From Phycisphaerales bacterium (GTDB taxonomy: Bacteria > Planctomycetota > Phycisphaerae > Phycisphaerales > UBA5793), in the NCBI GenBank assembly GCA_043101845.1, contig JBICHN010000011.1, forward strand, positions 274,635 through 338,634: a stretch of 64,000 nt of DNA, read 5' to 3'. Positions within the stretch are counted from its first letter, which is position 1, and each line of letters opens with the position of its first letter. A model generated the notes under the pieces. The model saw nothing but the letters and a program-made list of their open reading frames with translations, searched no databases and was not told the DNA's origin. Below, piece by piece: positions 8,436-42,052 of the stretch. The position numbers and the translations under genes are program-made.

Positions 8436-9280
8436 GGATCACCACAGAGGCGCAGAGACACAGAGAAGAGGTAGTGAATGGATGAACGAGGTGTTGGAAA
8501 CGACGGAATCGTCCTCAAGCCGGACTGGAGCGCCGACAAGCCCGGCGCCGTCGAGCGGAGGTCCGGTTTCTGCGTCACGGGAATCCGGAATCACCACAGA
8601 GTCACAGAGGCGCAGAGAAGAGGTGGAGAAAGAGTGGGAGAGGTGTTGGAGACGACGGAATCGTCCTCAAGCCGGACTGGAGCGCCGACAAGCCCCGCGC
8701 CGTCGAGCGGAGGTCCGGTTCAGGGCGCACGAACCGGCCCCGGACGATCGAACGCAGATCTGAGATTTCAAATCTCAAATCTCGGATTTCAGATTTCAAA
8801 TTTCAGATTTCCAATCTCGGATTCTCTACGCATTCAAACTTCACCGACCTACCCAGCCCCGTGTGCCACTGCCGTGCCGGCAGTGCGAAACGGCGAACGG
8901 CGCGCGGGACTCCGATCGCCCACCTCGTCACGCCGCTCGTAGGTTCGGCTACTGCCGAACGGTTGGGCGTTCGATCACTCGTCGACGATTCGGTCGCGCG
9001 TTGATCCCGCGTACCCCCAGCCGTCAGGCAGTAGCCTGACCTACCCAACCCCGTGTGCCACTGCCGTTCCGGCAGTGCGAAACGGCGGACGGCGCACGAG
9101 TCAACGATCGCCCACCTCGTCGCTCATGTCCCCGTTCCATTCCCGCACGGCCTGGAAGGCCGTGGCACTCGTAGGTTCGGCTCTTGCCGAACGGTTGGGC
9201 GTTCGATCACTCGTCGACGATTCGGACGCGCGTTGATCCCGCGTACCCCCAACCGTCAGGCGCCAGCCTGACCTACCCGG
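8436..9280. repeat. Composite intergenic repeat mosaic 1: 2x ~152-bp unit, heptamer array, REP-like doublets
   Basis: Units at about 8438-8569 and 8589-8720; (ATYTCAR)n 8757-8822; GTGTGC-foot hairpins 8861, 9053, 9146; GTAG-foot hairpins 8939, 9023, 9171, 9255. Confidence 0.9.
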
Positions 9281-9821
9281 ACGAGCACATCACGGCTGAA
9301 GTCGAAACCTCTATTGATTCCCGTTGGAACGAGCGATTGTTCATCGCGGGCCTCGACGAGGAATTCGGCGCGCATCGAAAAACCCGCGGGCCTCTGTGTG
9401 CGCCGCCCCTTCGTCGACCGCGTTCACGACCCGCGAGGCCGCCTCGCCGCTCGCGAAGACAGTTGCGCCGGCGCGCGCCGAATCGTCCGCACGCGCGCCC
9501 GCAAATTGCGCCATTCGTGGCCAAAATGGGACAAAACGGACCAAAGTGCGCCATTCGGCGCCAAAGTGCGCCAAACGAGCACTTTTCGCGCACCAAACGC
9601 GACGCTCCGTGCGCACGAACGCGCGCCCGTGCGCACAGGATCCCGACCGGAGATGAAGAACCCCCGCGCAGCGCCTCGAATCGACCCTGGCACTCGCGCC
9701 GAAACCGTCCCGCGTTGAAACGCGTGCGCACGAATCTGTCCTCGAGCGCCGTTCCGCCGTGCGCCTCGGTGTGCGGTGGTTGGATGGTCGAAAAAGGGGC
9801 GCCGCTCGCTCGTTCGCGCCC

Positions 9822-10217
9822 TCACTCCCGCTCCGTCTCGCAGTTCCAGCAGACGGCGAAGCTGCCCTCGATCTCCTCGCCGCACGAGGCGCACACCCAC
9901 GGGTCGGGGTCGGGCTGAAAGGCGCGGCCGCACTCGGGGCAGCGGAGCGAGCGGTTTCCGGTGAGGTCGTAGCCGCAGTCCGGACAGCGGCCGGGCGCGA
10001 TCTCGTCGATCAACTCGTCGATGATCGCCCGCGCCTCGTCCTCATCCTCCCGCGCCACGAGAATCGACGCCCGCGCCTGCGGCAGGCCGAAGCCGCCGAG
10101 CACCGTCGCCGCGGCCTCATCCTGAATGACCGACGGAATCTCCGCCGAGGCCAGGATCGAGATGATCAACTGGCCCTCCCACGGCGCCCGACATCGATAT
10201 ACGCGGACGAGCCCCAT
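9822..10217 (-). CDS. DUF2007-like putative signal-transducing protein with two C-terminal zinc ribbons
   Basis: N-terminal L...EIP..IQDE....G pattern; CPDCGYDL...CPECG and WVCASCGEEIEGSFAVCWNC. Confidence 0.7.
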   Translation of the reverse strand: MGLVRVYRCRAPWEGQLIISILASAEIPSVIQDEAAATVLGGFGLPQARASILVAREDEDEARAIIDELIDEIAPGRCPDCGYDLTGNRSLRCPECGRAFQPDPDPWVCASCGEEIEGSFAVCWNCETERE

Positions 10218-10277
10218 CGCGCGACGATCCTCTCTCTCGTAACCCTCACTCTCGCGAGTCGCTCAATTCTCGCGCGC

Positions 10278-11252
10278 TCAGCCGCCGCCGTCCCCGTCCG
10301 CGTCGCCGTCGCCGTCCTCCGCCGCCGCAACATCCGGCAGCGCCGCGACCGGATCGCCCCAGCGCGCGGGCGCCGACTCCACCGGCGTCTCCGCGTCGTA
10401 CGCGATCGGCTCGCCGAGTTCGGCGGCCACCCAGTCCTGAGTTTCCCACTCGACCGGACGCGGGTAGAACTGGCCGCGCTGGAGCACCTTCGCGTCGGGG
10501 AAGCGGGCGATCGCCTCGCCCCAGGTCGCGTGGTACCACGGCGCGCCGGTGAACCGGCGCATCGGCAGGCCGCGCAGCGGCCCCGCGATCGCGCGGCCCA
10601 TCGCCGGCCACCACAGGCTCTCCGTGTCGCGATCCCAGATGAGCAGGGCCGTCATCTCCTCGAGCACGCCGATCTCGACATACGCGAACCCCGCGAAGCC
10701 GAAGGTGAGCGTCCGGTCCTCCGCATAGGAGCGCTCGTACACCGTCAGGATGTTGTTCATGAGGTCGTGATACACGAGCACCGGCGTCTCGCCGACACGA
10801 TCGTTCACCATGCGGTACTCGATGAGCGGCACGGGATAGATCCGCGGCCCGTCGGGCGCGTCGAGCACGAGCGTGAAGTCGCCCTCGTCGAGAATGAGCT
10901 CGCCGTCCTCGTTCATCCACGACGCCGCGTCTTCGATCGTCGTGAACTGCGGCTCCCAGATTCCGAGCCACGCCTCGCGTCCGAAGCCGTACTCGAGCCC
11001 GCCCGCTTCGAGCTCGACCCAGTTCGTGATGTCGAAGTCCATCGCGTCGTCGTCGCCGCCGTGCAGGTAGCGCCGGCCGTCGCGCTCGATCGGGTCGGCC
11101 GTGCCCGGCTCATCGTTCGCCGGGGTCGGCGTCGGAGCGGGCGACGACTTGAAGACGCCGGTGACCATGTCGCGGTAGCGCTGTGAGCCGATCGCGAGCA
11201 CGATGTTGAGAAGCAGGAGCGCGAAGAGCGCGATGACGAGCGCCTTCGACAT
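10278..11252 (-). CDS. DUF3179-like exported protein
   Basis: N-terminal TM; YGFGRE..I.EPQF, YP...MVNDRVG..PV, LLIWDRDTESLW......AIAGPLRG, TW.E...FPD.KVL. Confidence 0.65.
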   Translation of the reverse strand: MSKALVIALFALLLLNIVLAIGSQRYRDMVTGVFKSSPAPTPTPANDEPGTADPIERDGRRYLHGGDDDAMDFDITNWVELEAGGLEYGFGREAWLGIWEPQFTTIEDAASWMNEDGELILDEGDFTLVLDAPDGPRIYPVPLIEYRMVNDRVGETPVLVYHDLMNNILTVYERSYAEDRTLTFGFAGFAYVEIGVLEEMTALLIWDRDTESLWWPAMGRAIAGPLRGLPMRRFTGAPWYHATWGEAIARFPDAKVLQRGQFYPRPVEWETQDWVAAELGEPIAYDAETPVESAPARWGDPVAALPDVAAAEDGDGDADGDGGG

Positions 11253-11407
11253 GGCGCCGCGATGGTGGCGAACACGGCGCGACGGATGAGCAGGCCGGGA
11301 CGACGGACGCATCGAACGAACTCCTTCTTCAGTGTGACGGCTGCGGACAGACTCGCGAATCATTGGCGCCGAACCGGCGCGCCGCCGACCCGATCGTCGA
11401 CGGACGA

Positions 11408-12436: not shown

Positions 12437-12497
12437 GCGCGTCGCGGATTGTAGCGGAGGAGTGGAAATGGAGAAGTGGACGGCGGGGCGGGGGAGC

Positions 12498-12924
12498 GGA
12501 ATCACCACAGAGTCACAGAGGCGCAGAGGCACAGAGAAGAGGTGGAGAAAGAGTGGCAGAGGTGATGGAAACGAATTCATCGTCCACAAGCCGGACTGGA
12601 GCGCCGACAAGCCCCGCGCCGTCGAGCGGAGGTCCGGTTCGGGGGGTCACGGAGATCCGGAATCACCACAGAGTCACAGAGGCGCAGAGAAGAGCTGGAG
12701 AAAGAGTGGGAGAGGTGTTGGAATCGCCGGAATCGTCCACAAGCCGGACTGGAGCGCCGACACGCCCGCGCCGTCGAGCGGAGGTCCGGTTCAGGCGCAC
12801 GAATCAGCGCACCACGATCAAGTACAGTTCCGGGATCTCAAATCTCAAATCTCAAATCTCAAATCTCAAATCTCAAATCTCAGATCTCAGATTTCAGATC
12901 TCAGCCCCGAAAGCCGTGGCACAC
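12498..12924. repeat. Composite repeat mosaic 2: 2x ~153-bp unit plus 10x heptamer ATCTCAR
   Basis: Hairpins at 12591-12637 and 12744-12789 nearly identical to 8520-8566 and 8672-8718; heptamer array 12835-12904. Confidence 0.9.
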
Positions 12925-13104
12925 ATACAACCGCCGCCCCGCCGGGCCCCGCCTCCGCCTCGATCGCTTCCGATAACCGCCGCGCCATACCGCCTGACGC
13001 TGGAATCGCCCTTCCGCTTCGCCGATACCTTTCCTAGACTGACTGGCCGGCCGCGGCGGACATCCGGCGAACGCCGGCCCGCCCCGCCGCGTACCGAAAC
13101 GAAC

Positions 13105-13638
13105 ATGACCCGACGCGAAACGCACAACCCCGGCTCGTTCTTCGGCGTCGCCCGCACGCTCGCGCTCGTCGCGCTCTGCGCGAACGCGATCGTCGCGTCG
13201 GTCGGCGGCGCCCTGTGCTATCGCGTCACGCTCGCGTCCATCGGCGCCTTCGCGGGCGACTGCGTCCCCGTCTGCTGCGACGACGAGCCGGTCGACGCCG
13301 CCGCGCTCGCATACGACGACGACCATGATGAGGACGACGACGAGAACCGTCCGTTGGTCCTCGACCTGCTTGCTCTGCTCCCTGTCGATGATCTCGGCGG
13401 CGACGGCGACGACTGCTGCTGGTCCCGCAGCGCGGCCGAATCGACGACCACCGCGTTGACGCTCGATCGATCGGGCGCCGCCGCCGATGACGCGTCGATT
13501 ACTCTCGCGCCGGCGCCGATCGGCGCCGCGTCGATCGCGTCCCTCGCCCTGAGCCGCGCCGCGATCCGCGCCGGCCAGAGCGCGCAGCCGCCGCCCGACT
13601 TCGTGGCGTCGCGGCGCTCGACCATCCTGCTCGTCTAG
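13105..13638 (+). CDS. Small membrane/exported Cys- and Asp-rich protein upstream of the metal-efflux operon (CzcI-like position)
   Basis: Hydrophobic N-terminus, CVPVCC and DDCC motifs, acidic DDDHDEDDDE run, C-terminal PPP....RSTILLV seen in small proteins preceding metal transporters. Confidence 0.5.
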   Translation: MTRRETHNPGSFFGVARTLALVALCANAIVASVGGALCYRVTLASIGAFAGDCVPVCCDDEPVDAAALAYDDDHDEDDDENRPLVLDLLALLPVDDLGGDGDDCCWSRSAAESTTTALTLDRSGAAADDASITLAPAPIGAASIASLALSRAAIRAGQSAQPPPDFVASRRSTILLV

Positions 13639-13812
13639 CTCCCCAACCATCTCCGCCGCTTGACGCGTGCGCGCCATCGCCGCCGTTGCGCTTTCCCGAG
13701 TGCCGCTCCGGCCGCGCCTTCGCGTCTTCTCGACTGTTCCGGCCGATGGCCCCGTCGCGGGGAGCGATTTGTGTTTCGAAGACCATCTACAGCGATCTCC
13801 TCTCGAACCGTC

Positions 13813-17087: not shown

Positions 17088-17124
17088 CGCATGACCAGCC
17101 CGCATCCGACGACACCACACTCCA

Positions 17125-17153
17125 TCTCTTCGTGACTCCGTCTCTCCGTCTCT
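17125..17153. repeat. Octamer-type repeat TCTCTTCGTGACTCCGTCTCTCCGTCTCT inside the czc operon
   Basis: Identical to 25255-25283. Confidence 0.7.
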
Positions 17154-17174
17154 TCCGCTTCCCGGACCCGCCCC

Positions 17175-20288
<3,114 letters not shown>

Positions 20289-20870
20289 ATGAAGAAGTAG
20301 AAGTGACGGATCGGTGAGGGCGAAGGATGCCTCGAGGATTGGCGCCCAACAGCGCCCCCAACTCAACTTAGCCCCGGGTGAATACACCCGGGGAAACGGC
20401 GCCCGTCCGCGCGAACGCCTCGCGGCTCCGGGGGATCGACCCCCTCCACCGCGACCCCGCTCACAGAGCGCGGCTCTACGGAAAGTGAGCGAACAACCAC
20501 CGCCCCGGGGTGGAACAGGCCTCTGTGCCTGTTCGAGGCTCGACGAATCTCCGGATTCAACCCCCGAACAACAACGGACGCCCGAAAGAAAAAACCCCGC
20601 ATGCGAATGCGGGGCCTGCTCACCCGGAGTCACCCCGGCGCAACCCGCAACGCGGCGCGACACCCGTTTGCCGAACCGTGTGCCACTGCCGTGTCGGCAG
20701 TGCGAAGCGGCGGACGGCGCGTGAAACGGCGTGCGCTCACCTCGGCGCCGGCGCCCTCGTCCCATTCGCACGGCCTGGAAGGCCGTGGCACACGAACCGA
20801 CGGCCGACCGTCCGCGTCACCCTCCGCCGCGCACGCGTCACACGCATTCCGGTACACTGACCGAGAGCCG

Positions 20871-24801: not shown

Positions 24802-24830
24802 GAGTGAGTGAGTGAGTGAGTGAGTGAGTG
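24802..24830. repeat. Microsatellite (GAGT)7G
   Basis: Perfect tetranucleotide run. Confidence 0.9.
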
Positions 24831-24874
24831 GCGAATCGGTCCGTGGAACAACGGGCGTCGCGCGATACGCATGG

Positions 24875-25285
24875 ATAGAGCCGCGTGCCGCGCACGGCGT
24901 CGAGGCGGAGTCCCTTCCTCGTAGAGCCGCGTGCTGTGCACGGGGTCGAGGCGGTGTCCCCCCAACGGGGGCGGAGCCTCGAAGTCCCGGCGCCCGTCGC
25001 GCAATCGATTCGCGGCGCCGGGGGCGCGACCCCCGGCGCCGCGACCCCGCTCACAGAGCGCGGCTCTACGCTCTCGTAAACGCAGCGCCGCTCGCCTCCG
25101 CGCGTGAAACGGGCTCACAGAGCCCGGCTCGCGCCGTCGCCGCGCCCTTCGTCTCTCCGTGACTACGTCTCTCCGTCTCCCCTCGCAGCGCCATCCGCCT
25201 CCGCGCGTGAAACGGGTTCACAGAGCCCGGCTCGCGCCCTCGCCGCGCCCTTCGTCTCTTCGTGACTCCGTCTCTCCGTCTCTCG
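24875..25285. repeat. Composite repeat mosaic 4
   Basis: RTAGAGCCGCG modules at about 24875, 24921 and (minus) 25040-25070; tandem ~103-bp duplication 25081-25180 / 25184-25283 containing a CGGGCTC-ACA-GAGCCCG hairpin and an octamer tail. Confidence 0.85.
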
Positions 25286-25301
25286 ATTTCTCTCTTCCCA
25301 C

Positions 25302-27243: not shown

Positions 27244-27267
27244 TCCATCGCCGCGACCACTAGACTC

Positions 27268-27395
27268 GGACAGAGAGACACAGAGGCGCGGAGGGGGAAG
27301 CGAGCGATTTGAGATTGGAGATCTGAGATTTTAGATTGGGGGACTCACGCGCGATGACGCGAGGGCGCGAGCCGGGCTCTGCGAGCCCGTTTCAC
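27268..27395. repeat. Composite repeat mosaic 5
   Basis: GACACAGAGGCGC module, GATTTGA-type heptamers 27306-27338, inverted copy of the 25104 hairpin at 27364-27395. Confidence 0.75.
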
Positions 27396-27641: not shown

Positions 27642-28250
27642 ATGAAGACGCAAGGCGCCGATCCCGTTTCGAACCCGCGCACGCCGGCGGTTGATATTGA
27701 TCCGATGTTTACCGACCGCTGGTCGCCGCGCGCGTACGACGCGGAGCATGAGGTGACCGAGGATGAGATCGCGTCGGTCATGGAGGCGGCGCGGTGGTCG
27801 CCTTCGTCGTACAACGAGCAGCCGTGGGTCTTCGTGTATGCGCGGTCGAAGGAGGACCATGCGCGGTTCCTCGAGCTGCTCGTCGAGGGGAACCGGAAGT
27901 GGGCCGACCAGGCGCCGGTGCTCATCTTCGCGCTTGCGAAGCGCACCTTTGACAAGAATGGCAAGCCGAATCGGCATTATGCGTTCGACACCGGCGCCGC
28001 GTGGATGGCGATGTCGCTGCAGGCCCGCAAGCTCGGCCTCTACACGCACGGCATGGCCGGGTTCCACGAGGACAAGGCGTACGAAGCGCTCGGCGTCGAT
28101 CGCGAGAAGTACGAGGTCATGGCCGCAATCGCGCTCGGGCGGCGGGCCGACGCGTCGACGCTCGATGACGAGGGGATGCGGAAGGGTGAGAAGCCGAACG
28201 ATCGCAAGCCGCTCGAGAAGGTGGCGTACGAGGGGCGATTCTCCGCCTAG
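27642..28250 (+). CDS. Nitroreductase family protein
   Basis: RWSPRAY, EAARWSPSSYNEQPW.F, FDTGAAW..M.LQA..LGL..HGMAGF. Confidence 0.92.
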   Translation: MKTQGADPVSNPRTPAVDIDPMFTDRWSPRAYDAEHEVTEDEIASVMEAARWSPSSYNEQPWVFVYARSKEDHARFLELLVEGNRKWADQAPVLIFALAKRTFDKNGKPNRHYAFDTGAAWMAMSLQARKLGLYTHGMAGFHEDKAYEALGVDREKYEVMAAIALGRRADASTLDDEGMRKGEKPNDRKPLEKVAYEGRFSA

Positions 28251-28259
28251 CGTACCGGC

Positions 28260-29558
28260 ATGAATCGAACCGCGACGACCGCGACGACCGCGAGGAGACT
28301 GATGAGCGCGCTCCGATTCGGCGCGACGCGCGCGTTCATCGTGATCATCGCGATGACGGTGTTCTTCGGGGCCGCATGGGCGACGGATGTACAGGACGCT
28401 GACGCGCCGCAGCCCGAATCGCAGCCGCAGCCCGAACCCGATCCTGAGACCCAGCCCGAGCCCGAACCCGCACCGGCGGAGCGCGCGACGGAGCCCGGCG
28501 CCACCGCGCCGGCCGACACCTCGCCCGCCAACACACCCGCCCCCGTCGTTCCACTCCCCACGCCGAAGCCGGCGCGGGTCGATCATGTGTTCATCATCAG
28601 CGTCGACGGGTTGCGGAGCGATGCGCTCCTCGCGCCCGGCACGCGCCTGCCGAACTTCGCGCGGCTGTCGCGGCGGGGCGCCTACACGCTCAACGCGCGG
28701 ACCGATCCCGACTCGACCGTCACGCTGCCGAACCATGTCGGCATGATCACCGGCCGCCTCATGCGCGGCCGGTCGGGGCACGGCTGGACGGGCAACGCCG
28801 ATCCGCCCGCCGGGGCCACGCTCCACGACGGTCATGACGAGCCGATCATGAGCGTGTTCGAGGTCGCACGCTCGTTCGGCGTCGCGACCGCGGCGTTCAC
28901 GTCGAAGACGAAGTTCTCGCTCTTCGAGGTCTCGCACGAGGGGCTCGACGCGTACGCGTACGCGGCCGAGGCGCCGGCGATCACCGATCACGCGCTCCGC
29001 GCGCTCGCCGCGGCGGAGCGTTCGCTCATCTTCGTGCACTACCGCGACCCGGACAGCGCCGGGCACGCGTCGGGGTGGGATCTCTCGCCCGGCTCGGCGT
29101 ACATGGAGTCGATCGCGCGGGTCGATCTCGAGCTCGGCCGGCTGCTCGACGCGATCGAGACGGACGACCGCCGACGCGGCCGCGTCGCGATGATCATCAC
29201 GAGCGATCACGGCGGCGGCTCGCCGCACCGTTCGCACACGCACGAGTCGATGTGGGTGAACTACATCATTCCGTTTCTCGTGTGGGTCGACGGCGCCGAC
29301 CGCGCCGGCGAGTTGTACCTCTTGAACGCGTCAACGCGCGCCGACCCGGGCCTTCGCCGCCCGGGCGTGTCGCCGACGATGGAAGGCGACCCGTTACCGC
29401 CGATCCGCAACTCCGACGCCGCAAACCTCGCGCTCGACCTCCTCGGCCTGCCGGCGGTTCCGGGTTCAGTGGTGAATGGCGGGCAGGAGTTGGGGGTGTT
29501 TGAGTCTGGTTCTGGTTCCGGCGATGGTGACGTGCGGGGTGCCGGCGGCGGTGGGTGA
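28260..29558 (+). CDS. Exported alkaline-phosphatase-superfamily protein (NPP/phosphodiesterase type)
   Basis: ISVDGLRSDA, TLPNH..MITG (Thr nucleophile), PDSAGH, TSDHGG; Pro/Glu-rich linker after the signal. Confidence 0.85.
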   Translation: MNRTATTATTARRLMSALRFGATRAFIVIIAMTVFFGAAWATDVQDADAPQPESQPQPEPDPETQPEPEPAPAERATEPGATAPADTSPANTPAPVVPLPTPKPARVDHVFIISVDGLRSDALLAPGTRLPNFARLSRRGAYTLNARTDPDSTVTLPNHVGMITGRLMRGRSGHGWTGNADPPAGATLHDGHDEPIMSVFEVARSFGVATAAFTSKTKFSLFEVSHEGLDAYAYAAEAPAITDHALRALAAAERSLIFVHYRDPDSAGHASGWDLSPGSAYMESIARVDLELGRLLDAIETDDRRRGRVAMIITSDHGGGSPHRSHTHESMWVNYIIPFLVWVDGADRAGELYLLNASTRADPGLRRPGVSPTMEGDPLPPIRNSDAANLALDLLGLPAVPGSVVNGGQELGVFESGSGSGDGDVRGAGGGG

Positions 29559-30027
29559 CTTGCCTTGGGTACTACGCAAGTCGGGGCTCTGGACCGTCGG
29601 GAGTTTCGTCAGACGAATCTCCTGGCCGCGAGAAGGCGGCATGATCGACCCCTGTTCACTCCCGGGAGAATCCCCGGCGCGGATTTTTCAAAGTTGTTCC
29701 AGCTCCGTTGCTTGACGCGTTATACTCGGCGTCTATCGATACGACGGTCGAATGGACCGAGGGCGCGTTTCACTCATCGGTGATCATCTCACAGACGGTC
29801 CCGGATTCCCGGACTCGATTCACGAAAGGCCGCGATGGCTGAAGGCACGAGCACGAAGGCGGTGGGCGGTCAGGGCGGCGGGTCGCCCGATCTAAAATGG
29901 AAGATACACGGCAACGACGACTACAACGCCGTCGACATCGCGCACAAGGCGAATCGCGTTGGGTTTGAGATTCAGTTGTCTCTACAAAGATGAGCGACTC
30001 GAACGCCGTGAAGGTATCAAACAAGGC

Positions 30028-30855
30028 ATGAGTAAACGAACCGAGACTCGCAGCGATCGCGTTATACCCTTCCTGAAGTGGGCGGGGGGCAAGCGTTGGC
30101 TCGTTGCAAAGTCGCCGGAATTGTTCGACATCCCCTTCACGCGGTACGTCGAACCGTTTCTCGGGAGCGGCGCGGTATTCTTCCACTTGGCCCCCAAGCG
30201 CTCAGTACTCACTGATCGAAACTCCGAGCTTATCACCACGTACTCCGCGATCCGAGATGACTGGCGGGCCGTGTGGACACGATTGCGCAGACACCACCGG
30301 CACCATTCGAAAGACTACTACTACCAGCTACGATCGTCGACACCTCGCTCTCCGGCGGGCATCGCTGCGAGACTAATCTACTTGAACCGTACCTGCTGGA
30401 ATGGGTTGTACCGTGTCAATCTAAGCGGCGCGTTCAACGTACCAATCGGGACGAAGACCGACGCCATCTACGAAACCGATTGTTTTGAAAGCGTTTCGCA
30501 AATGCTGAAGTCGGCGAGCCTCAAGTCGTGCGACTTTTCAAAGACATTGGACAACACCGGCGACGGCGATTTTGTCTTCGTCGATCCGCCCTACACAGTG
30601 CGGCACGACAACAACGGTTTCATCAAATATAACGATTCGTTGTTCTCTTGGGAAGACCAGGAGCGACTGCGAGACGCAGTTGTTGACAGTCGTGCTCGCG
30701 GCGCCCGCGTTCTCGTCACTAACGCAAGCCATCCTTCGATCGAGAAACTCTACCGTGGTATCGGCCAGCACGTCCGATTGAGTCGGTCGAGCGTGATCGC
30801 TGGTGCATCAGAGTTCCGTGGACCATGTCATGAAATGGCGATCAAATGCTTCTGA
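30028..30855 (+). CDS. Dam-family (D12 class) N6-adenine DNA methyltransferase
   Basis: FLKWAGGKRWL, EPFLGSGAV, YLNRTCWNGLYRVN..G.FNVP.G, DPPY. Confidence 0.93.
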   Translation: MSKRTETRSDRVIPFLKWAGGKRWLVAKSPELFDIPFTRYVEPFLGSGAVFFHLAPKRSVLTDRNSELITTYSAIRDDWRAVWTRLRRHHRHHSKDYYYQLRSSTPRSPAGIAARLIYLNRTCWNGLYRVNLSGAFNVPIGTKTDAIYETDCFESVSQMLKSASLKSCDFSKTLDNTGDGDFVFVDPPYTVRHDNNGFIKYNDSLFSWEDQERLRDAVVDSRARGARVLVTNASHPSIEKLYRGIGQHVRLSRSSVIAGASEFRGPCHEMAIKCF

Positions 30856-31460
30856 AGATTTGCAAGGTTCTTCCGTTCGTTAACACGTTCGCCCACTATA
30901 ACAGGCATCGGCACAAAGACGCTCTAAAGAAGTTCCTCTTTCTTTGGTCCATTTCCGTCATTCCGATCGTGTCGGCATCGATCGTCGTCGCGATGGCGCC
31001 GAATGGCGGGTTCCCTGCGGCCGTTTGGGAGGCTATCCGTACTGGGTTCTTTGCGACCGATCAATTCATTTACGCAGTCGCCTTCCTTCCGCCGGTCTTG
31101 TACTTGTTGTTCGAGAAGTATGAACTTCGCGGCCATTTCATCGCGCTCAACAAACGCAAGAAGAACGAGAACCTCGAGATTCCTGGATATTTCCTGATCT
31201 ATTTGTTGACCGTTCTCGTCTTGATTTTCACAGCGTTTGTGTACGGAGTCACCAAAGCGAATCCATATTCTGTTTCGGCGACCTTTCTTGCGGTGTCGGG
31301 CGGGGTCGTGTACGCCTTTGCAATGTTCTGTTGGTACTTGTCCCTGCTTGAGTCGGTGTCACCTGATCCCTTCGGGTTTTTGGATGAGAATCGAGCAAGG
31401 GAAGCTGAAATGAGTGAAGACTTCGGGAAGCGGATCCGGAGCCGGGAGAGGCAGCAATGA
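30846..31460 (+). CDS. Hypothetical membrane protein with ~4 TM helices
   Basis: Four hydrophobic segments and a charged helical C-tail; overlaps the Dam stop and the DGQHR start. Confidence 0.75.
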   Translation: MLLKICKVLPFVNTFAHYNRHRHKDALKKFLFLWSISVIPIVSASIVVAMAPNGGFPAAVWEAIRTGFFATDQFIYAVAFLPPVLYLLFEKYELRGHFIALNKRKKNENLEIPGYFLIYLLTVLVLIFTAFVYGVTKANPYSVSATFLAVSGGVVYAFAMFCWYLSLLESVSPDPFGFLDENRAREAEMSEDFGKRIRSRERQQ

Positions 31461-32668
31461 ACAATCCAAAAGAACTGAAGCTGACGGTTCTCCCTGTCGA
31501 GCAGAAGATTGGGACGTTCTACGTCGCCTCGATATCCGCAAGAGACCTCGTCGAAATCTCATACTCTGACGTTCGGAGACTTACAGAGGACCAGCGCGAC
31601 CTTGAGCGATACCTCGGAATCCAGCGACCGGTCAATCCGCGGCGAATCAAGGAGATCAGAAAGTACCTGACGGCGAGTGACGCGACATTTCCAACAGCGG
31701 TAATCGTAGCTGTCGACGAGCGCTGCGCGGTACTTGGTGAGACGGAACGTGACGGTCCAACTGAACTGATACTGCGACCATACGACCCGGAAGAAGACAC
31801 CGACGATCAAGCGATTCCATACGGGAAGATTGCTCGGGTGATTGACGGCCAACACCGACTCGCAGCGTTTCTTGGCGAAGACGACAACTACACATTCGAT
31901 TTTGCAGACGAGAGTTTCGAGATTAACCTTGCAATATTTATTGGCGCGGACGTGTCTGAGCAGGCGAATATTTTTGCTACAGTCAATCTGGCGCAAACAA
32001 AGGTTAACAAAAGCCTAGTTTACGACCTTACCGATCTGGCGAAGGCTAGGAGCCCGCACAAGACCTGTCATGACGTAGCGGTGGTGTTGGATAGCGAATC
32101 AGCTAGTCCATTCTATGAGCGCATCAAGAGGCTTGGGACTCGAACACCTGGCCGTGGCTACGAACCGCTTACGCAGGCAGCGTTCGTGGAGTCCCTCATC
32201 CCTTTTATCTCGTCCGATCCGATGCAAGACCGCAACTTGCTTCTCGATGGCGAAAGGCTTCCACGTGCTGACGATGCCTTATTGGAGAAGCGGCCGTTTC
32301 GGAATCTATTTATTGAGAAGAAGGACCTCGACATCGCGGAGATCCTCTTTAACTACTTCGACGCAGTCCGAGCACGATGGCCAGAGTCTTGGAACGCACC
32401 AAAAGATGCCCGCAATCTGCTGCCTCGATCAAACGCGTTTAAGGCTTTTATGAAGTTCTTACGTTTAGATGTTTATCCCTCGCTGGTCGGGACTCAGTTC
32501 GGAAGTGTACCCACAAAGGGCGACTTCGATCCCTATTTCGACAGAATCGACGTGACCGACAGAGACTTCACCACAAAGAACTTTACCGCTGGAAGCAGCG
32601 GGGAGTCCACGTTCCTTAAGATGTTGAGAGGCCAGATTACGCTTGCGGATATGGTTGAGGACGATTAG
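31457..32668 (+). CDS. DGQHR-domain (DndB/ParB-like) protein
   Basis: GIQR...RR.KEI..YL, FPTAVI, VIDGQHRL, F.TVN..QT.V.KSL.YDL; ATGA coupling. Confidence 0.9.
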   Translation: MNNPKELKLTVLPVEQKIGTFYVASISARDLVEISYSDVRRLTEDQRDLERYLGIQRPVNPRRIKEIRKYLTASDATFPTAVIVAVDERCAVLGETERDGPTELILRPYDPEEDTDDQAIPYGKIARVIDGQHRLAAFLGEDDNYTFDFADESFEINLAIFIGADVSEQANIFATVNLAQTKVNKSLVYDLTDLAKARSPHKTCHDVAVVLDSESASPFYERIKRLGTRTPGRGYEPLTQAAFVESLIPFISSDPMQDRNLLLDGERLPRADDALLEKRPFRNLFIEKKDLDIAEILFNYFDAVRARWPESWNAPKDARNLLPRSNAFKAFMKFLRLDVYPSLVGTQFGSVPTKGDFDPYFDRIDVTDRDFTTKNFTAGSSGESTFLKMLRGQITLADMVEDD

Positions 32669-32898: not shown

Positions 32899-33387
32899 CT
32901 CAACGATCCGATCCGCGTGACGGAGCGGAAGAACATCGTCCAGAGCCGCAAGTTCCGTGAGGCGCTCGAAGACGCGATGCTGCGGTATACGAACAAGGCG
33001 ATCTCGACGGCGGAAGTGATTTCGCGACTGCTCGAACTGGCGCAGCATCTGCGCGACGCGAAGAAGCATGGCGAGGAGCTCGGGCTGAGTGAAGAGGAGA
33101 CCGCGTTCTATGACGCGCTCGCCGAGAACGGTTCGGCGAAGGAGATCATGAAGTCGGACACCCTGCGGCTCATGGCGCGGGAACTCGCCGAGACGGTGAA
33201 GCGGTTGCCGAAGCTCGACTGGACGCAACGAGAATCGGTGCGGGCCGATCTGCGCCGGCAGGTGCGGCGGTTACTCGCACGGTACGGCTATCCGCCTGAC
33301 CTTTTCACCCCGAAGGACGCGACGCTGCTTGTGCTCAAGCAGGCAGAGCGCGGGGCGGAGAACGTGGTGGTGGGTGAGGAGGGTTGA
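32899..33387 (+). pseudogene. hsdR: 5'-truncated type I R-M restriction subunit (HsdR) C-terminal DUF3387 remnant
   Basis: LNDPIRV..RKNIVQSRKF.E.LE....RY.NKAI.TAEVI..L.ELA...GEELGLSEEE.AFYDAL..N.SA...DWT.RESVRA.LR..V.RLL..YGYPPD; no nuclease or helicase part upstream. Confidence 0.82.
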
Positions 33388-33390
33388 GGA

Positions 33391-33615
33391 AGGCATGGAG
33401 GCACGAAGGCACGAAGGGACTGAGGGACTGAGGGACGGAGGGACGGAGGGACGGAGGGGTGAGCGAGGCGGGGATTTGAGATTTGAGATCTCTGATTTGA
33501 GAGGGCGCAATCGGCGCGATTGGGGGCGTTTTGTGCGCGCCGCGTTTATGGACGGGGGCCGTTTGAACTTCCGGCGGATCACCCTCCCCTGGCCCCTCCC
33601 TCGAGGAAGGGGGAT
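33391..33615. repeat. Composite repeat mosaic 6
   Basis: Octamer array (GRAGGSAC)n 33391-33459, GATTTGA heptamers about 33473-33501, CCCTCCCC hairpin 33569-33613. Confidence 0.85.
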
Positions 33616-33645
33616 TCGGAGCGTAACGCGGAGTGTGGGAAGCGC

Positions 33646-35511: not shown

Positions 35512-36085
35512 CTGGCGCCGGTGGACTTCGGGCGAGCAGGCCCCGCATTCGCATGCGGGGTTTTTTCGGAGATTCGCGGGCTCGTCTCCGGCGGGCGTGG
35601 ATGTGTGTTGGGGTTTCGCGCGCTGCGTTGCGGGATGCGGGGCGTTTGGATTTCCGGCGGATCACCCTCCCCTGGCCCCTCCCTCGAGGGAGGGGGGTTG
35701 GGAGGAGTGGCACGAAGGCACGGGGGCACCGAGGGGGAGAGGGAGCGGAGATTTCAGATCTGAGATTTGAAATTTGAGAGGGCGGAATGGGCGCTGGGCG
35801 CCTTCGGGCGGGCAGGCCCCGCGTTGGTATGCGGCGTTTTTTTCGTGTGGGTGGGAAGGCACGGGGGCACGGGGGCACGGAGGGGCGGAGGCACGGAGGG
35901 AGGAGAGGCGGATTTGTGATTTGAGATTTGAGATTTGAGAGGGCGCAATGGGCGCCGGTGGACTTCGGGCGAGCAGGCCCCGCATTGGTATGCGGGGTTT
36001 TTTCTTTGGTGGGGATTGGTCGCGCAAGGGGCACTGGTGGACTCCCGGCGAGCAGGCCCCGCATTCGCATGCGGGGTTTTTTCGT
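35512..36085. repeat. Composite repeat mosaic 7 with four terminator-like hairpins
   Basis: GCGAGCAGGCCCCGCATT(C/G)(G/C)(C/T)ATGCGGGG-T6 at about 35532, 35808 (degenerate), 35969 and 36048, interleaved with octamer, heptamer and CCCTCCCC modules. Confidence 0.9.
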
Positions 36086-37697: not shown

Positions 37698-37710
37698 GGG
37701 GTTTCTATGA

Positions 37711-37950
37711 AGGCACGGAGGCACGGTGGCACGGAGGCACGAAGGCACGGGGGCACGAAGGGGCGGAGGGGGGCGGAGGGGAGAAGGGGAGATTTGAAAT
37801 TCGGGATTTGAAATTTGAGAATCGGACGGAACTGGGGGAGCGGAGATTTGAGATTTGGGACGAGGGTTTGTTGCGCCGCGTTGCGGGCGCCGGCCACTTT
37901 CTACTTTGGCGGTTCACCCTCCCCCGGCCCCTCCCTCGGAGGGAGGGGAG
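37711..37950. repeat. Composite repeat mosaic 8
   Basis: (GGCACGRR)n octamers 37711-37760, GATTTGA heptamers 37790-37858, CCCTCCCC hairpin about 37915-37950. Confidence 0.8.
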
Positions 37951-37986
37951 TTGGGAGCGGAGAGGGACGGGGAGAACGCGGTTCGA

Positions 37987-40095
37987 TTATTCGACGAGGT
38001 CGATGGGGTCGGGGTGGTCGGGGCGGCGTTTGGGCTCGAATCCCATTGAGGTTCCGAGTCGTTCGCGGGCTTCGAGGTCGCGGAGATCGCGTTCGCGGTC
38101 GCGTTCGCGTTGGTGTTCATCGTCGTCGGGTTCTTCGTGGTCATGCGCGCGGTCGACTTCGCGGCGGAGGGCGGCGGCCTGGTCGTCGGGTCCGGCGGCG
38201 AGGCGCGCGTGGCGTCGGGCGGTGAGGCGCGCGGCGATGAAGAAGCCGATCGCGATGACGAGGTACGCGGCGGTGAAGCTCCACGCCGGGTAGCGCGTCG
38301 CGGTGTCGGGGAGCGCGCGGCCAGGGATCGGGAGAAGGTAGTAGATCGTGTTGCCGTCGATCGCGAAGGCGTGGATGACGCCGAGCGCGCTCAGCGCGGC
38401 GCCGCCGAGCGCCCACCACGCGGCGACGGCCCATTTGCGTTCGATGATCCACGCGATGAGGGCGGCCCAGATCATGGCGATGAGAAGCAGGCCGCGCTCG
38501 AGTCGGATGAAGCCGAGGATGGAGTAGCCGCCCCACGCGGAGACGATCGGATCGCGCGCGTCGAGTTGTTCCTGGAGCGTGGTGAGGCGCGGGGCGGGCG
38601 GAATGGTGTCGGCGACGGCGGCTTCGTCGAGCGCGGGTGATTCTTCGGGCACGGTTGGTTCGTCGGGCGCGGCGCCAGGCGCGTCGTTGATTGCATCTTC
38701 GAGCGCGGGTGATTCGTCGGGCGAATCGAGGGTCGGATCCGTCGTCGAATCGGTTTCGACGATGGGTGTGTTGTTCGCGAGCGCGTTCGGGTCGTCGTCG
38801 ACGAGGCGCAGGGAGGAGTAAGGCGCCATGGCGATCATGACGATGAGTCCGGCGATGGCGGGGATGAGCCCGATGGCGACGGCGCCGCCGTGCTCGGGCG
38901 GTGAGGCGTTGAAGGCCTGGGCGGTCATGATGGCGCCGATCCAGAGGAGGATCGCGGCGCCGGCGGCGATGGGGATGACCCCTTCGAGGGTGAGCGCGAG
39001 GCCGGTGAGGCAGATCGCGGCGATCGCGAACGCGTTGAGCAGGCTGTACGCCCATCCGGCGCCGAGCGCCTTCCAGCCGGGGTGGCCGATGTAGATCGTC
39101 GTCGGGAAGCAGCTGCCGAGGAAGCCGCCGGCGATCGAGCCGATGCCGTTCACCATGAGCGAGGGCGCCGGGTCGTATTCATCGCCGGATGCGGCGGCGC
39201 TCTCGAGGTTCTGGAGCGAGCCGACGAGGTTGAAGAGGCCCATGGGAATGATGACGCCGAGCCAGGCGATCCACTCGCCGCTCGTGAACGCGCCGACGAT
39301 GAGCGGCCAGACGACGCGCGGGTCGGGCCAGTAGAAACCGGCGTGGTCGACGCTGTCGCGCACCGCGGAGGGCGCGCGGAGGTTGCGCCCGTCGTCGAGC
39401 GTCCAGCCGAGTCCGGGCAGGTCGTGCGCGTAGGTGAGGACCCAGGCGAGCGCGGCGCCGACGAGGATCGCGACGAGTCCGGCGGGGAGACCGAGCGGCA
39501 TGCGCGCCCGGCCGTAGTAGCCGGCGAAGAGGATCGCGAGAGGGATGAAGCCGATGAGCGGGTCGGCGGTGATGCGGACGACGAAGTCCATGGCGATGAA
39601 GGTGATCGCGATGCCGGCGAGGGCGGAGAGGAGCGCGGCGCGCGGCGTGACGGCGCGGATCCATCGCGCGAAGAAGGCGCCGAAGAACTCGATGAAGCCG
39701 CTGCCGATGCAGGCGATCATGCCGGCGGCGTAGGCGGCGTCCCACGAGCCGGTCTGCGCTTTGACGGGAATCATGATGAAGAAGAGGTAGGCGAAGACGC
39801 TCGGCGTGTTGATGCCGTAGGGGAGCGCGGTGGCGCGGCGTTCGTCGCGGCGCGAGGCCCACCAGGCCTGGAGGGCGTAGTAGAGGTTGCCGAGGATGAC
39901 ACTCACGCCGACGGCGGGGATGATCTGTCCGAGGAGGGTGGCGCCGTCGTCGTCGATGAGCGCGCCGACGAGGGCGACGATGACGAGGAGCTGGACGAGG
40001 TTGTCGACGAGGAGGCCGAAGGCGCCGTCGATGTCGCCGCCGAGTTTGCGTCCGAAGGAGGCGTGGTGGTCGATGCCGACGGGGGTCGTCGCCAT
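37987..40095 (-). CDS. NCS2-like (xanthine/uracil-type) permease
   Basis: GDIDGAFGL..DNL.Q, TALPYGINTPS, PRAALLS.LAG, NLESAAA.GD.Y, FPTTIYIGHPGWK..GA. Confidence 0.82.
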   Translation of the reverse strand: MATTPVGIDHHASFGRKLGGDIDGAFGLLVDNLVQLLVIVALVGALIDDDGATLLGQIIPAVGVSVILGNLYYALQAWWASRRDERRATALPYGINTPSVFAYLFFIMIPVKAQTGSWDAAYAAGMIACIGSGFIEFFGAFFARWIRAVTPRAALLSALAGIAITFIAMDFVVRITADPLIGFIPLAILFAGYYGRARMPLGLPAGLVAILVGAALAWVLTYAHDLPGLGWTLDDGRNLRAPSAVRDSVDHAGFYWPDPRVVWPLIVGAFTSGEWIAWLGVIIPMGLFNLVGSLQNLESAAASGDEYDPAPSLMVNGIGSIAGGFLGSCFPTTIYIGHPGWKALGAGWAYSLLNAFAIAAICLTGLALTLEGVIPIAAGAAILLWIGAIMTAQAFNASPPEHGGAVAIGLIPAIAGLIVMIAMAPYSSLRLVDDDPNALANNTPIVETDSTTDPTLDSPDESPALEDAINDAPGAAPDEPTVPEESPALDEAAVADTIPPAPRLTTLQEQLDARDPIVSAWGGYSILGFIRLERGLLLIAMIWAALIAWIIERKWAVAAWWALGGAALSALGVIHAFAIDGNTIYYLLPIPGRALPDTATRYPAWSFTAAYLVIAIGFFIAARLTARRHARLAAGPDDQAAALRREVDRAHDHEEPDDDEHQRERDRERDLRDLEARERLGTSMGFEPKRRPDHPDPIDLVE

Positions 40096-40276
40096 GGGTG
40101 CGGTGCTCCAGTGGTGTTCGTTCGCGTGTTCGAGTGAGCGAGCAAGCGCGCGAGCGTGAGGGAGGCGCGGCGGGCGGGCCGCGCGTCGGGATTCATCGAC
40201 CGCCGTCGAGTCGGGCGTCATCGTACCGCGCGTCGCGTTTCGCCGCACGGGGAGACGCGGCGTAGGATCGCGGACG

Positions 40277-40732
40277 ATGGCGAAGAAACGGGCGAGACCG
40301 CTGGCGCTGGGGGTGATTCGTCGCGAGCGCGATGGCGCGATGCTCGTGTCGCGCGGTCACGACGAGGCGACGGGCGAGGAGTTCTTTCGTCCGCTCGGCG
40401 GGGCGGTCGAGTTTCAGGAGTCGAGCGCCGAGGCGCTCCGCCGTGAGTTTCTCGAGGAGATCGACGCGACGCTCGACGGAGTTCGACTGCTCGGCGTGCT
40501 CGAGAACATCTTCACCTACCACGGCAAGCCGAAGCACGAGATCGTGTTCGTGTACGAGGCGCGGTTCGCGGACCGCCGGTTGTACGAGCGCGAGTCGTTC
40601 GAGGTGATCGAGGGCGGCGGGCCCTGGCGGACGGCGGTGTGGCGGCCGGTCGACTCGTTCGAGGCGGAGGGCGCGGCGGCGCTCTATCCGCAGGGGCTGC
40701 GCGAGTTGTTGCGGCGGTCGGCGTCGCGTTGA
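40277..40732 (+). CDS. NUDIX hydrolase
   Basis: Nudix box GGAVEFQESSAEALRREFLEEI. Confidence 0.88.
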   Translation: MAKKRARPLALGVIRRERDGAMLVSRGHDEATGEEFFRPLGGAVEFQESSAEALRREFLEEIDATLDGVRLLGVLENIFTYHGKPKHEIVFVYEARFADRRLYERESFEVIEGGGPWRTAVWRPVDSFEAEGAAALYPQGLRELLRRSASR

Positions 40733-40771
40733 ACGCGCGCGGGGCCGCGGCGGCGCTACGCTTGGGACGCC

Positions 40772-41401
40772 ATGCGCATCATCGCCGGTCAATACAAGAG
40801 TCGTCGCATTCTGCCGCCGCCCGACGCGAAGACGCGTCCGATCACCGATCGGGTGAAGGAGGCGCTCTTCAATCATCTGCGCGGGCGGACGGAGGGGGCG
40901 CATGTCGTCGATCTGTTCAGCGGGACGGGGAGCGTGGGGCTCGAGGCGCTCAGTCGTGGCGCCGCGCGCGTGCTCTTCGTCGAGAAGAGTCGTCCGGCGT
41001 CGAACCTGCTCAAGCGGAACATCGAGTCGCTCGGCGCCGGGGATGAGTGCGCCGTGTATGTGGGTGATGCGCTCGGGCCGGCGTGGCTCGCGCGGGCGCC
41101 GCGGCCGATCGATCTCGTGTTCTGCGATCCGCCGTATGAGTTGATGACGAACCCGCGGACGGCGAAGCTCGTGCTCGAAACGCTCGGCCGGCTCGCAGCG
41201 GCGGATGAGGTGTTGCGCGAGGATGCGATGCTCGTGTTGCGCACGCCGTGGCCGGTGCGGGCGTGGGTGTCGAAGGCGGAGCTCGAAGCGGGCGCGAAGC
41301 CGTCGCCCGAAGTCGACCTGAGTCACCCGGCGCTCGAGGGCCCGGAGACGCGGGTGTACAACCAGATGGCGTTGAACTTCTATCAGCCGGCGGCGCGGTA
41401 G
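40772..41401 (+). CDS. rsmD: 16S rRNA m2G966 methyltransferase
   Basis: MRIIAG, TRP.TDRVKEALFN, DLFSGTGS.GLEALSRGA, DPPY. Confidence 0.9.
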   Translation: MRIIAGQYKSRRILPPPDAKTRPITDRVKEALFNHLRGRTEGAHVVDLFSGTGSVGLEALSRGAARVLFVEKSRPASNLLKRNIESLGAGDECAVYVGDALGPAWLARAPRPIDLVFCDPPYELMTNPRTAKLVLETLGRLAAADEVLREDAMLVLRTPWPVRAWVSKAELEAGAKPSPEVDLSHPALEGPETRVYNQMALNFYQPAAR

Positions 41402-41410
41402 GTCGGGCTT

Positions 41411-42052
41411 CCCGGGTGGCTGTGGCTGAGGTTCGGGGAAGCCACAGGTGGGACGGTGGTCGGGGCGGAAGATTTGAAATCTGAGATTTGAGATTTGAGA
41501 TCGACGCGATAGGTCAGGCTGTTGCCTGACGGTTGGGCGCATGGTTGCACGCGCGCGGTCCGATCAACACGAACGCCGCTCGACTGCGAACGCACAACCG
41601 TTCGGCAAGAGCCGAACCTACGAACCCCAACCCTGTGTGTTACTGCCTTCCGGGCCGTGGAAATGAAACGGGAGTGTGTGTGACGACGGAAGCGCTCGCG
41701 AACTCGCGCGCCGTTCGCCGCTCCGCACTGCCGGCACGGCAGTGGCACACCGGGTCAGTCTTCGTCACGGACTCGCTCGTTCCATTGGCTGTGGGTTCCG
41801 CTGCGCTTCAACCACAGCCACCCGCTCGTAGTTCGCGCACCCCAGGGTGGCTGTGGATGAGGTTCGGGGAAGCCACAGGTCGGACGGCGCTCGAAGAAGG
41901 AGATCTAAAATCTGAGATCTGAAATTTGAGATTCATCGGGTAGGTCAGGCTATTGCCTGACGGTTGGCCGCCCGATCTCGCCCGGAACGACCGATCAATA
42001 CCAACCCCGCCCGACCACGAACGCCCAATCCTTCGGCAAGAGCCGAACCTAC
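41411..42052. repeat. Composite repeat mosaic 9
   Basis: GGGTGGCTGTGG hairpins 41414, 41787 (minus), 41845; heptamers 41471-41500 and 41901-41932; GTAG doublets 41509/41600 and 41940/42031; GTGTGC doublet 41635/41726. Confidence 0.9.

Follow-up and report, generated by a model that had tools for sequence, protein, structure and literature searches.

The window analysed in this study is a 64,000-nucleotide stretch of the genome of a Phycisphaerales bacterium (C11:274635-338634, where C-numbers denote the contigs of this genome). The genome comprises 4,123,359 bases (4.12 Mb) in 11 contigs with a GC content of ca. 64%, and the completeness and contamination of the assembly are 96% and 1.14%, respectively. 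A gene map of the window was drawn from a Pfam scan of 45 open reading frames (ORFs), reaching 52.9 kb, and on this map all repeat patches, which are mosaics of hairpins and runs of short words, are intergenic (Table 1). Two low-GC islands adjoin patches; that at 21.5-24.6 kb carries FG-GAP and HNH genes, and in that at 29.9-33.4 kb, Dam methylase and DndB-like genes (29959-32668) precede a type I restriction gene. The last, an ORF at 32917-33387, aligns to a type I restriction HindI-like subunit domain over the C-terminal part alone (profile positions 185-328 of 329) and is probably truncated. No tRNAs were found in the window, and an Rfam 15 search of the whole window gave no match at gathering score. 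A mir-150 match (E = 0.052), obtained from positions 8300-42200 with a loose Rfam threshold, was rejected as being at chance level. Throughout the text, this genome is G000, other G-numbers are genomes of relatives, and X1 to X3 are sequencing runs.

Repeat families in the window and across the genome

When all nine patches were read, each of the nine motif classes on which the original prediction was built proved to be a genuine multi-copy family, present where it had been placed, and four classes absent from that prediction (S, P, K, and E) were recognised in addition. Fourteen classes of module were then annotated genome-wide, modules no more than 120 bp apart being joined into one patch, and this census returned 552 modules in 149 patches, with 44 of the modules inside the window. 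A comparison of the nine patches with the genome by blastn, which gave 1343 matches and a cover of up to ca. 139-fold, likewise bore out the multi-copy nature of these parts. In a whole-genome self-blast at E = 5, from which the repeat cover was taken, 68,203 of the 4,123,359 bases (1.65%) had at least five other copies, and within the window such high-copy bases were concentrated at 8,433-42,067. Greedy clustering of the repeats listed 60 seed families, many of which are non-coding.

Several of the classes are long imperfect hairpins that fold better than shuffled sequences (R1, z = -3.0; V, z = -4.0; R2, z = -6.7; W doublet, z = -4.75). The foot of the stem opens with GTAG in R1 and R2 and with GTGG in K and W, and W and K also have a GGGTGG head in common. 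Outside the window, S forms tandem arrays with a period of ca. 94 bp (C11:58589-58853, C11:46530-46793, and C2:907155-907301), in which the outer stem is kept and the inner hairpin varies among copies in a seemingly compensatory manner. A run of the tetramer GAGT (gagtgagtgagt...) was seen at 24803-24830, just 3' of the HNH endonuclease gene and before patch 4. A spurious ORF of 154 aa is called inside patch 1, and the acrB frame (17175-20288) leaves its Pfam match at residue 1016 of 1037 and continues for ca. 21 codons into the q7 module at 20244-20288, which provides the tail and the stop codon of acrB.

HUH-tyrosine genes and their flanking repeats

The mosaics had been likened in the original prediction to repetitive extragenic palindromic (REP) sequences, to their clusters, the bacterial interspersed mosaic elements (BIMEs), and to REP doublets forming hairpins (REPINs), all of which are spread by REP-associated tyrosine transposases (RAYTs). 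Genes for such enzymes, which carry a histidine-hydrophobe-histidine (HUH) motif, were sought in the whole genome by three routes. A PF01797 (Y1_Tnp) search found three genes, and inspection of same-class repeat copies enclosing 350-4000 bp uncovered ORFs bearing HxH and Y motifs that are enclosed by copies of V or by copies of S. A profile made from the flanked ORFs and run over 32,048 stop-to-stop frames then gave ten genes, and a second genome search with an alignment of the RAYT-like family (A2) led to the same ten places. All ten genes without exception share both histidines of HxH and the tyrosine. The genes are 12-25% identical to the first of them, and the profile searches revealed no near-duplicates, which indicates that each is single-copy.

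A single high-copy repeat family stands on both sides of seven of the ten genes and on one side of an eighth (E), and the likeness to REP, BIME, and REPIN elements with cognate enzymes was thus supported, the eight genes each being flanked by one family. The prediction that the window contains no transposase also held; none of the ten genes is within it, and none was detected among the 45 ORFs scanned. The window therefore has repeats but no HUH enzyme gene, and two of the ten genes lie upstream of it, at distances of 16.1 kb (R1-flanked) and 7.9 kb (R2-flanked). A gene that we take to encode a DUF1559-type pseudopilin adjoins one of the RAYT genes, in keeping with the placement of the genome in Planctomycetota.

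The relationship of these genes to RAYTs was supported by model and structure comparisons. Two genes exceeded the cut-off (80 bits) of NF047646, the model of the REP-associated tyrosine transposase, with 173.1 bits for the R1-flanked gene and 85.5 bits for the other. When the A2 profile was compared with solved structures, the best match was TnpA-REP of Escherichia coli (4ER8, E = 9.9e-13), followed by the ISDra2, IS200, and IS608 transposases. The most divergent gene is the P-flanked one; its structural model, built on the alignment of the ten, had a predicted local distance difference test score of 73.7, and among the chains listed to rank 25 it matched Y1 transposases only, 4ER8 included. 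The P hairpins had also been considered as a CRISPR array (clustered regularly interspaced short palindromic repeats), which was rejected because the stretches between the hairpins are themselves repeated and the stems vary, although cas genes were not searched; the inverted placement of the P arrays around an HUH gene also contradicts it. Since W shares the GGGTGG head of K, the K-associated gene may serve W as well.

RAYT-like genes were present in 43 of the 61 genomes of the order that were searched, at up to 17 places in one genome. Four genes of relatives were inspected for repeats beside them; the genes from G031 and G040 each stand between inverted hairpin repeats of their own, whereas that of G007 has direct repeats only and that of G004 has none.

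These results suggest, with a probability of roughly 0.78, that the patches are BIME-like clusters of REP/REPIN-type families, each served by its own single-copy RAYT-like Y1 gene located elsewhere in the genome, an arrangement called a REPtron, and that short tandem arrays of 7- and 8-base words are interspersed among these families. Several observations weigh against this interpretation. Two of the HUH genes (C11:20823-21440 and C7:105601-106257) have no high-copy family beside them, and none of the ten genes is flanked by W, A, C, or the tandem arrays. Folding was no better than that of shuffles for S (z = +0.3), A (z = -1.8), and the K+E stretch (z = -1.15), and five classes (S, P, E, V, and A) showed no GT[AG]G foot. 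Against NF047646, scores of 79.7, 46.2, 43.4, 24, 22.7, and 16.5 bits as well as no match at all were obtained below the cut-off; the R2-flanked gene matches the IS200 model only (19.6 bits), and the P-flanked gene joined the profile only at E = 0.006, its structural model also depending on an alignment with the other nine genes. In addition, the types of gene gap described below (divergent, convergent, or tandem) rest on crude gene calls based on the GC content at third codon positions (GC3).

Table 1 Positions of repeat patches, repeat classes, HUH-tyrosine genes, small-gene cassettes, and repeat-rich bins. Positions without a contig prefix are those of the window; h7 and o8 are heptamer and octamer runs.
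Feature	Position	Description	Copies genome-wide
Patch 1	8436..9284	q7 run plus S hairpin, twice; heptamer run; then V, R1, V, R1; cover up to 66; follows a phosphoglycerate-mutase-like gene (6875-8416, +)	
Patch 2	12490..12910	q7 run plus S hairpin, twice; then long heptamer run (12838-12903); cover up to 132; upstream of a minus-strand carbamoyltransferase gene	
o8 run	17112..17163 (-)	within the HlyD-AcrB intercistronic spacer; cover 53; absent from the list of the original prediction	
Patch 3	20244..20800	q7 (overlapping the last codons of acrB), P hairpin, half R2, K (hairpin at 20508-20535, the repeat that flanks the RAYT gene C7:17896-18477), E, T, solitary V element	
Patch 4	24866..25298	R2 half, full R2 doublet (24920-25071; folds at -63.8 kcal/mol), then A hairpin plus octamer run, twice	
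Patch 5	27260..27395	q7 run, heptamer run, A hairpin; between pirin and nitroreductase genes	
Patch 6	33394..33619 (+)	octamer run, heptamer run, C hairpin; convergent gene gap	
Patch 7	35525..36084 (+)	T, C, then o8 + h7 + T twice, then another T	
Patch 8	37709..37955 (+)	octamer run, heptamer runs, C hairpin; directly upstream of a symporter gene start; contigs of X1, X2, and X3 all break here	
Patch 9, composite super-element I	41410..42052	W+, h7+, R1+, V-, W-, then W+, h7+, R1+	
R1	8937-9055, 9169-9278, 41503-41623, 41938-42052	GTAGGT hairpin doublets	37
V	8864-8929, 9052-9172, 20681-20800, 41635-41747	GTGTGCCAC elements	31
W	41410-41452, 41777-41823, 41842-41883	GGGTGGCTGTGG hairpins	49
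R2	20397-20481, 24920-25071	GTAGAGCCGCG	29
A	25104-25135, 25207-25238, 27364-27395	GCGAGCCGGGCTC hairpins	40
T	20579-20630 and four copies within 35525-36084	CCCCGCAT..ATGCGGGG-T run	26
C	33569-33619, 35648-35702, 37908-37955	CCCTCCCC hairpin	6
q7	six places in the window	ACCACAGAG.CACAGAG runs	1 (an under-count; a looser pattern gave 22 arrays, including 6 in the window)
h7	multiple window patches	heptamer runs	46
o8	multiple window patches	octamer runs	58
S	8516-8568, 8668-8727, 12587-12641, 12740-12792		70
P	within 20366-20569		96
K	within 20366-20569		22
E	within 20366-20569		41
HUH gene	C11:257960-258526	R1 on both sides; R1-like hairpin upstream, full R1 doublet beginning in the stop codon	
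HUH gene	C11:266165-266719	R2, two copies per side	
HUH gene	C11:49244-49792	V, three copies per side	
HUH gene	C7:17896-18477	K hairpin on both sides	
HUH gene	C4:132439-133197 (stop-to-stop frame)	161-bp S doublets, 97.5% identical, on both sides	
HUH gene	C4:299095-299802 (frame)	P arrays, inverted, on both sides	
HUH gene	C4:281267-281764	T doublets on both sides	
HUH gene	C4:113767-114651 (frame)	E on one side only, directly behind the stop codon	
HUH gene	C7:105601-106257	local low-copy 32-nt repeats only	
HUH gene	C11:20823-21440	no flanking repeats	
PF05635 gene	C11:918504	bracketed by inverted o8 arrays	
PF05635 gene	C11:361777 (C11:361633-362066)	inverted h7 arrays, one upstream and its inverse within the 3' part of the gene	
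PF13366 gene	C4:228268 (C4:228217-228740)	inverted q7 (CACAGAG-type) arrays	
PF05635 gene	C11:96264	inverted GA-rich arrays on one side only	
Repeat-rich bins	C11:0-100 and 250-400 kb; C2:850-950 kb; C4:0-200 and 250-300 kb; all C7; C5 first 50 kb		

Genomic placement, module order, and alternative explanations

The repeats are confined to a part of the genome. Seventeen 50-kb bins, which amount to 849 kb or 20.6% of the genome, hold 529 of the 552 modules, and the unbiased self-blast cover gave the same pattern. The ten HUH genes and the better of two DnaA matches (C4:151816, 227 bits) lie in or between these repeat-rich bins; a second DnaA-domain gene (C11:761012-761491, 168 bits, in a 623-aa frame) is far from C4:151816. 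The GC content of the repeat-rich DNA is 66-68% as compared to 63%, and the GC3 of genes is 0.85 in the compartment and 0.79 elsewhere (Mann-Whitney p = 3e-134). At the borders, GC3 changes gradually over ca. 200 kb (from 0.86 to 0.77 on C11 and from 0.77 to 0.86 on C2). The local GC skew is also more variable in the compartment than elsewhere, with a standard deviation of 0.055 against 0.023 in 20-kb bins.

The orientation of K and E follows this local skew. When the skew was calculated after masking of the repeats, 36 patches agreed with it and 6 disagreed (binomial p = 2.8e-6), and the orientation of S was biased the opposite way (8 agreeing, 28 against). Gene strand accounted for little of the local skew, the coding-strand skew being ca. 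0 (-0.018 and 0.003), with a correlation of -0.34 to strand bias in the rich bins. In the window, the skew turns from negative to positive at ca. 28000-30000 and reaches +0.29 at 36-38 kb. An origin at this flip was considered and rejected, because dnaA is on another contig and the skew flips repeatedly within the compartment. The repeated flips between 50-kb bins may be traces of inversions.

The modules recur beside the same neighbours, as had been stated in the original prediction. Two to six classes are contained in 84 of the 149 patches. Only 97 strand-symmetric types occur among the 403 adjacent pairs, as compared to a mean of 207 and a minimum of 187 when identity and orientation were shuffled 1000 times; the eight commonest types make up 167 pairs, where 49 were expected. 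Recurrent strings are W+ h7+ R1+ V- W-, which is tandem-iterated as in patch 9, and o8+ A- S+ K+ (R2+) E+. The spacings within them are narrow, namely 10-14 nt from R1 to V, 20-22 nt from E to K, 17-25 nt from W- to W+, 30-44 nt from K to S, and, in 11 of 12 cases, 37-51 nt from A to S. Those involving arrays are 17-31 nt from W to h7, 4-19 nt from h7 to R1, and up to 36 nt from A to o8. The co-occurrence of classes also exceeded chance, since 51 gene gaps of the repeat-rich compartment hold at least three classes as compared to 12.3 under a uniform null and to a mean of 32.3 (maximum 43 in 1000) under a length-weighted null, and only 115 of the 428 gaps are occupied where 161-220 were expected. 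In these shuffle tests, duplicated copies are not independent events, so that the significance is overstated and the tests show structure, not mechanism. Since order and spacing are fixed and the patch-9 block recurs whole, many of the modules are segments of composite super-elements, and the mosaics largely consist of these.

Such composites could have come about without transposition. According to this explanation, a few long composite repeats formed once and were spread only by host recombination (tandem and segmental duplication, and gene conversion); RAYTs would no longer move them, the families would not target one another, and the HUH genes would be domesticated relics. The patch-9 block recurs at ten other places in the genome, where it aligns continuously, spacers included, over ca. 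290-660 bases (650 bp for the block) with 76-83% identity, and units are tandem-iterated within single gaps with their spacer sequences conserved in part. The divergence of R1 correlates with that of its neighbour V (Mantel r = 0.50, reached in 67 of 2000 permutations), and the median pairwise identity within families, 0.81-0.93, is unlike that of a recent burst. On the other hand, four other neighbour pairs showed no correlated divergence (r = -0.04 to 0.08, with low power for short modules), every class is also found alone or with different neighbours, and the distance from A to S is kept even though the spacer sequence differs. Furthermore, the HUH genes that the families flank are intact with their catalytic residues, and the strand polarity of K and E with the skew fits single-strand transposition. 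Spread by host recombination alone thus seems rather unlikely. The same data bear on the prediction that the families target or recombine into each other; its premise that the modules are not independent was upheld, while mutual targeting is only one of two readings beside the duplication of blocks, the Mantel tests being modestly positive for one pair (R1/V) and null, with low power, for four.

For the REPtron interpretation, we propose a course of events modelled on TnpA-REP of E. coli and on the IS200/IS605 transposases. IS200/IS605 elements transpose as single strands in a replication-coupled manner. By analogy, the Y1 enzymes would act at replication forks, cleaving and rejoining the hairpins of their own families while these are single-stranded, and such fork-coupled movement would leave strand-polarised copies, so that the polarity of K and E is the outcome one would expect. 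The composite units (W-h7-R1-V-W and o8-A-S-K-(R2)-E) would then have spread by tandem or segmental duplication, by preferred insertion beside existing elements, or by both.

The 7- and 8-mer arrays may have a separate source. The genome holds three PF05635 genes (four-helix-bundle, 23S rRNA intervening sequence (IVS) protein) and one PF13366 gene (GxxExxY), both of which had been named as candidate partners of the modules. This suggestion was borne out in so far as inverted arrays of the mosaic types bracket three of these four genes, none of which is in the window, and each mosaic array type (o8, h7, and q7) also forms the arms of a small-gene cassette. The DUF559 candidate was not supported, as the sole PF04480 match in the genome is below the cut-off (18.3 vs 20.6 bits). 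The arrays of the mosaics might accordingly be solo arms of a second selfish system of IVS-like cassettes with a small gene and an RNA stem. Two of the three cassettes are in 50-kb bins otherwise almost free of modules, and the PF13366 cassette on C4 is in a bin without any other annotated modules. However, no PF05635 or PF13366 gene is present in the window, the arrays of the mosaics are mostly single-oriented and at fixed distances from REP modules, and at C11:96264 the inverted arrays are confined to one flank of the gene, in a sample of only four genes. Two further inverted q7 pairs are 210 and 274 nt apart, which leaves no room for a gene of this kind, with E modules between them. We consider it unlikely that the arrays are such solo arms.

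Relatives provided evidence of presence/absence variation, which had been predicted, at two orthologous sites. The HlyD-AcrB spacer is 87 nt long here with its octamer run, and the run is lacking in G009, G007, and G008 of the same family, whose genes are ca. 70% identical to those of this genome; the spacers of G009 and G007 are much shorter. At patch 9, an 18,877-letter contig of run X2 (another study) is collinear on both sides with ca. 91% identity and has 8250 other letters in place of 720 bases. At the repeat bins, X2 has a summed contig depth 7-26 times higher, so that its organism, too, carries the families in many copies. Contigs of X1 cover the window stretch without differences. In a 753-aa gene (37987-40248), the X2 contig has different letters, at about the same length, for the segments 38087-38203, 38597-38793, and 40082-40190, which are hypervariable within a gene that is otherwise ca. 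91-95% identical. A gap downstream of the RsmD-like gene in G008 and G007, which is short and mosaic-free, was rejected as an empty site because the next gene differs. A metagenome search with the RsmD-like protein gave at least 80 loci with best segment identities of 36-57%, and none of them came from a close relative.

The replacement at patch 9 (the 41.4-42.1 kb site) is also the one concrete case of the landing pads for accessory genes that the original prediction envisaged. Of 24 low-GC islands, 10 fall in the repeat-rich 20.6% of the genome, and six of these lie less than 500 bp from a patch where 4.56 were expected, a number that 25% of shuffles reach; this idea was thus not borne out statistically. 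The further proposal of an undescribed gene-acquisition system went too far. One repeat family per RAYT, several RAYTs per genome, and clustering in BIMEs are already in print (PMC6006769, PMC3733652), and the gene-acquisition reading is weakly supported. It is also quite unlikely, in our estimation, that the mosaics are a record of cross-targeting in which eight or more REPtrons and the IVS-like cassettes inserted at fixed offsets beside each other's hairpins, all inside a single high-GC3 compartment that is active in recombination and contains dnaA, making the compartment a self-organised plasticity zone of Phycisphaerae chromosomes. If this were true, the patches would be preferred breakpoints for inversion and kilobase-scale gene replacement.

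Another explanation attributes the repeats mainly to host functions, as terminators, stabilisers of mRNA 3' ends, or sites for nucleoid proteins, the clusters reflecting selection at 3' ends. Such roles have been proposed for REPs (PMC3733652). For the 460 modules with called genes near on both sides, convergent gaps are enriched (145 of 460 as compared to 100 of 546 in the background) and divergent gaps are depleted (45 of 460 as compared to 98 of 546), and T modules resemble terminators of a hairpin and a T run. Nevertheless, all four T copies of patch 7 are oriented against both flanking genes, and for most classes the orientation to flanking genes is roughly even, the same/opposite counts in tandem gaps being 11/16 for o8, 16/16 for S, and 15/16 for W. 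In addition, about four fifths of the genome manages without the repeats, and three relatives lack the octamer run in the same operon spacer. Maintenance mainly for the host is therefore improbable. An assembly artefact or a chimeric bin of a repeat-rich, GC-rich organism and another, to which the 11-contig assembly with several contigs ending in repeats and the GC difference might point, is hardly credible because the GC3 gradient at the borders is gradual and C11, C2, and C4 contain both compartments, and it also disagrees with the completeness and contamination values, the matching X1 contigs, and the collinear, repeat-rich X2 relative.

Relation to known repeat systems

Nearly everything known of REP/RAYT biology comes from Proteobacteria, usually with one to few systems per genome. 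The ten RAYT-like genes described here, eight of them with identifiable cognate repeats, offer a natural panel of enzymes and hairpins for the study of DNA recognition by Y1 enzymes. They also raise the questions of how order and spacing came to be fixed across systems, why the repeats are confined to high-GC3 DNA, and whether the polarity of K and E is a sign of spread tied to replication or recombination. In practical terms, such repeats break assemblies and inflate ORF calls, as seen with the 154-aa ORF and the acrB tail. In a limited search of the RAYT/REPIN literature, Planctomycetes included, no description of this repertoire, grammar, or confinement was found among the papers listed. 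What is new here is the confinement to a compartment, the polarity of K and E with the skew, and the bracketing of IVS-type genes by the array types.

According to one report, every tnpA-REP gene is paired with a REP family of its own, several of these may share a genome, and the flanked gene is termed a REPtron (PMC6006769). GTAG REPs are known in the Planctomycetes-Verrucomicrobia-Chlamydiae superphylum, Planctomycetes included, and RAYT genes flanked by non-GTAG inverted repeats are on record (PMC3733652). Like the REPtrons of Proteobacteria (E. coli, Pseudomonas, and Stenotrophomonas), the present systems have a single-copy HUH-tyrosine gene flanked by its own hairpin family, GTAG or GTGG feet (R1, R2, K, and W), inverted doublets that form long hairpins, and extragenic copies numbering 20-100 per family, with several systems in one genome. 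Unlike them, they occur in a member of the Phycisphaerae (Planctomycetota) with ten HUH genes, seven of which score below the NCBIfam RAYT cut-off; five classes are without the GT[AG]G foot, modules of different systems stand in fixed order and spacing, and all systems are limited to about a fifth of the genome.

In E. coli, BIMEs are made of subtypes of one REP family. In the patches of this genome, one cluster mixes hairpins of several RAYT systems with 7- and 8-mer arrays. The two have in common that REP clusters, which are called BIMEs, lie between genes in set orientations together with other short motifs and are often tandem-reiterated (PMC3733652).

The array runs invite two further comparisons. 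Short tandem heptamer repeats are familiar from cyanobacteria as STRR (short tandemly repeated repetitive) sequences. Intergenic TAACTGA heptamer arrays, described for Beggiatoaceae, Cyanobacteria, and Bacteroidetes (PMC4679880), are likewise short, lineage-specific runs of a 7-base word in many gene gaps, whereas the words here are GATTTGA-like, CACAGAG-like, and ACGGAG-core octamers, the runs keep set distances to REP hairpins, and small genes are enclosed by inverted pairs of them. ORF-bearing IVSs of 23S rRNA encode S23p/four-helix-bundle proteins (PMC4990558). As in these elements, inverted arms enclose a small PF05635 or PF13366 gene in the cassettes found here, the arms being of the array types of the mosaics; unlike them, the cassettes are outside rRNA, and the arrays of the window have no such gene. 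By these comparisons, the repeats belong to a system of the known REP/BIME type, in which the grammar across families, the confinement, and the link to IVS cassettes are the parts worth following.

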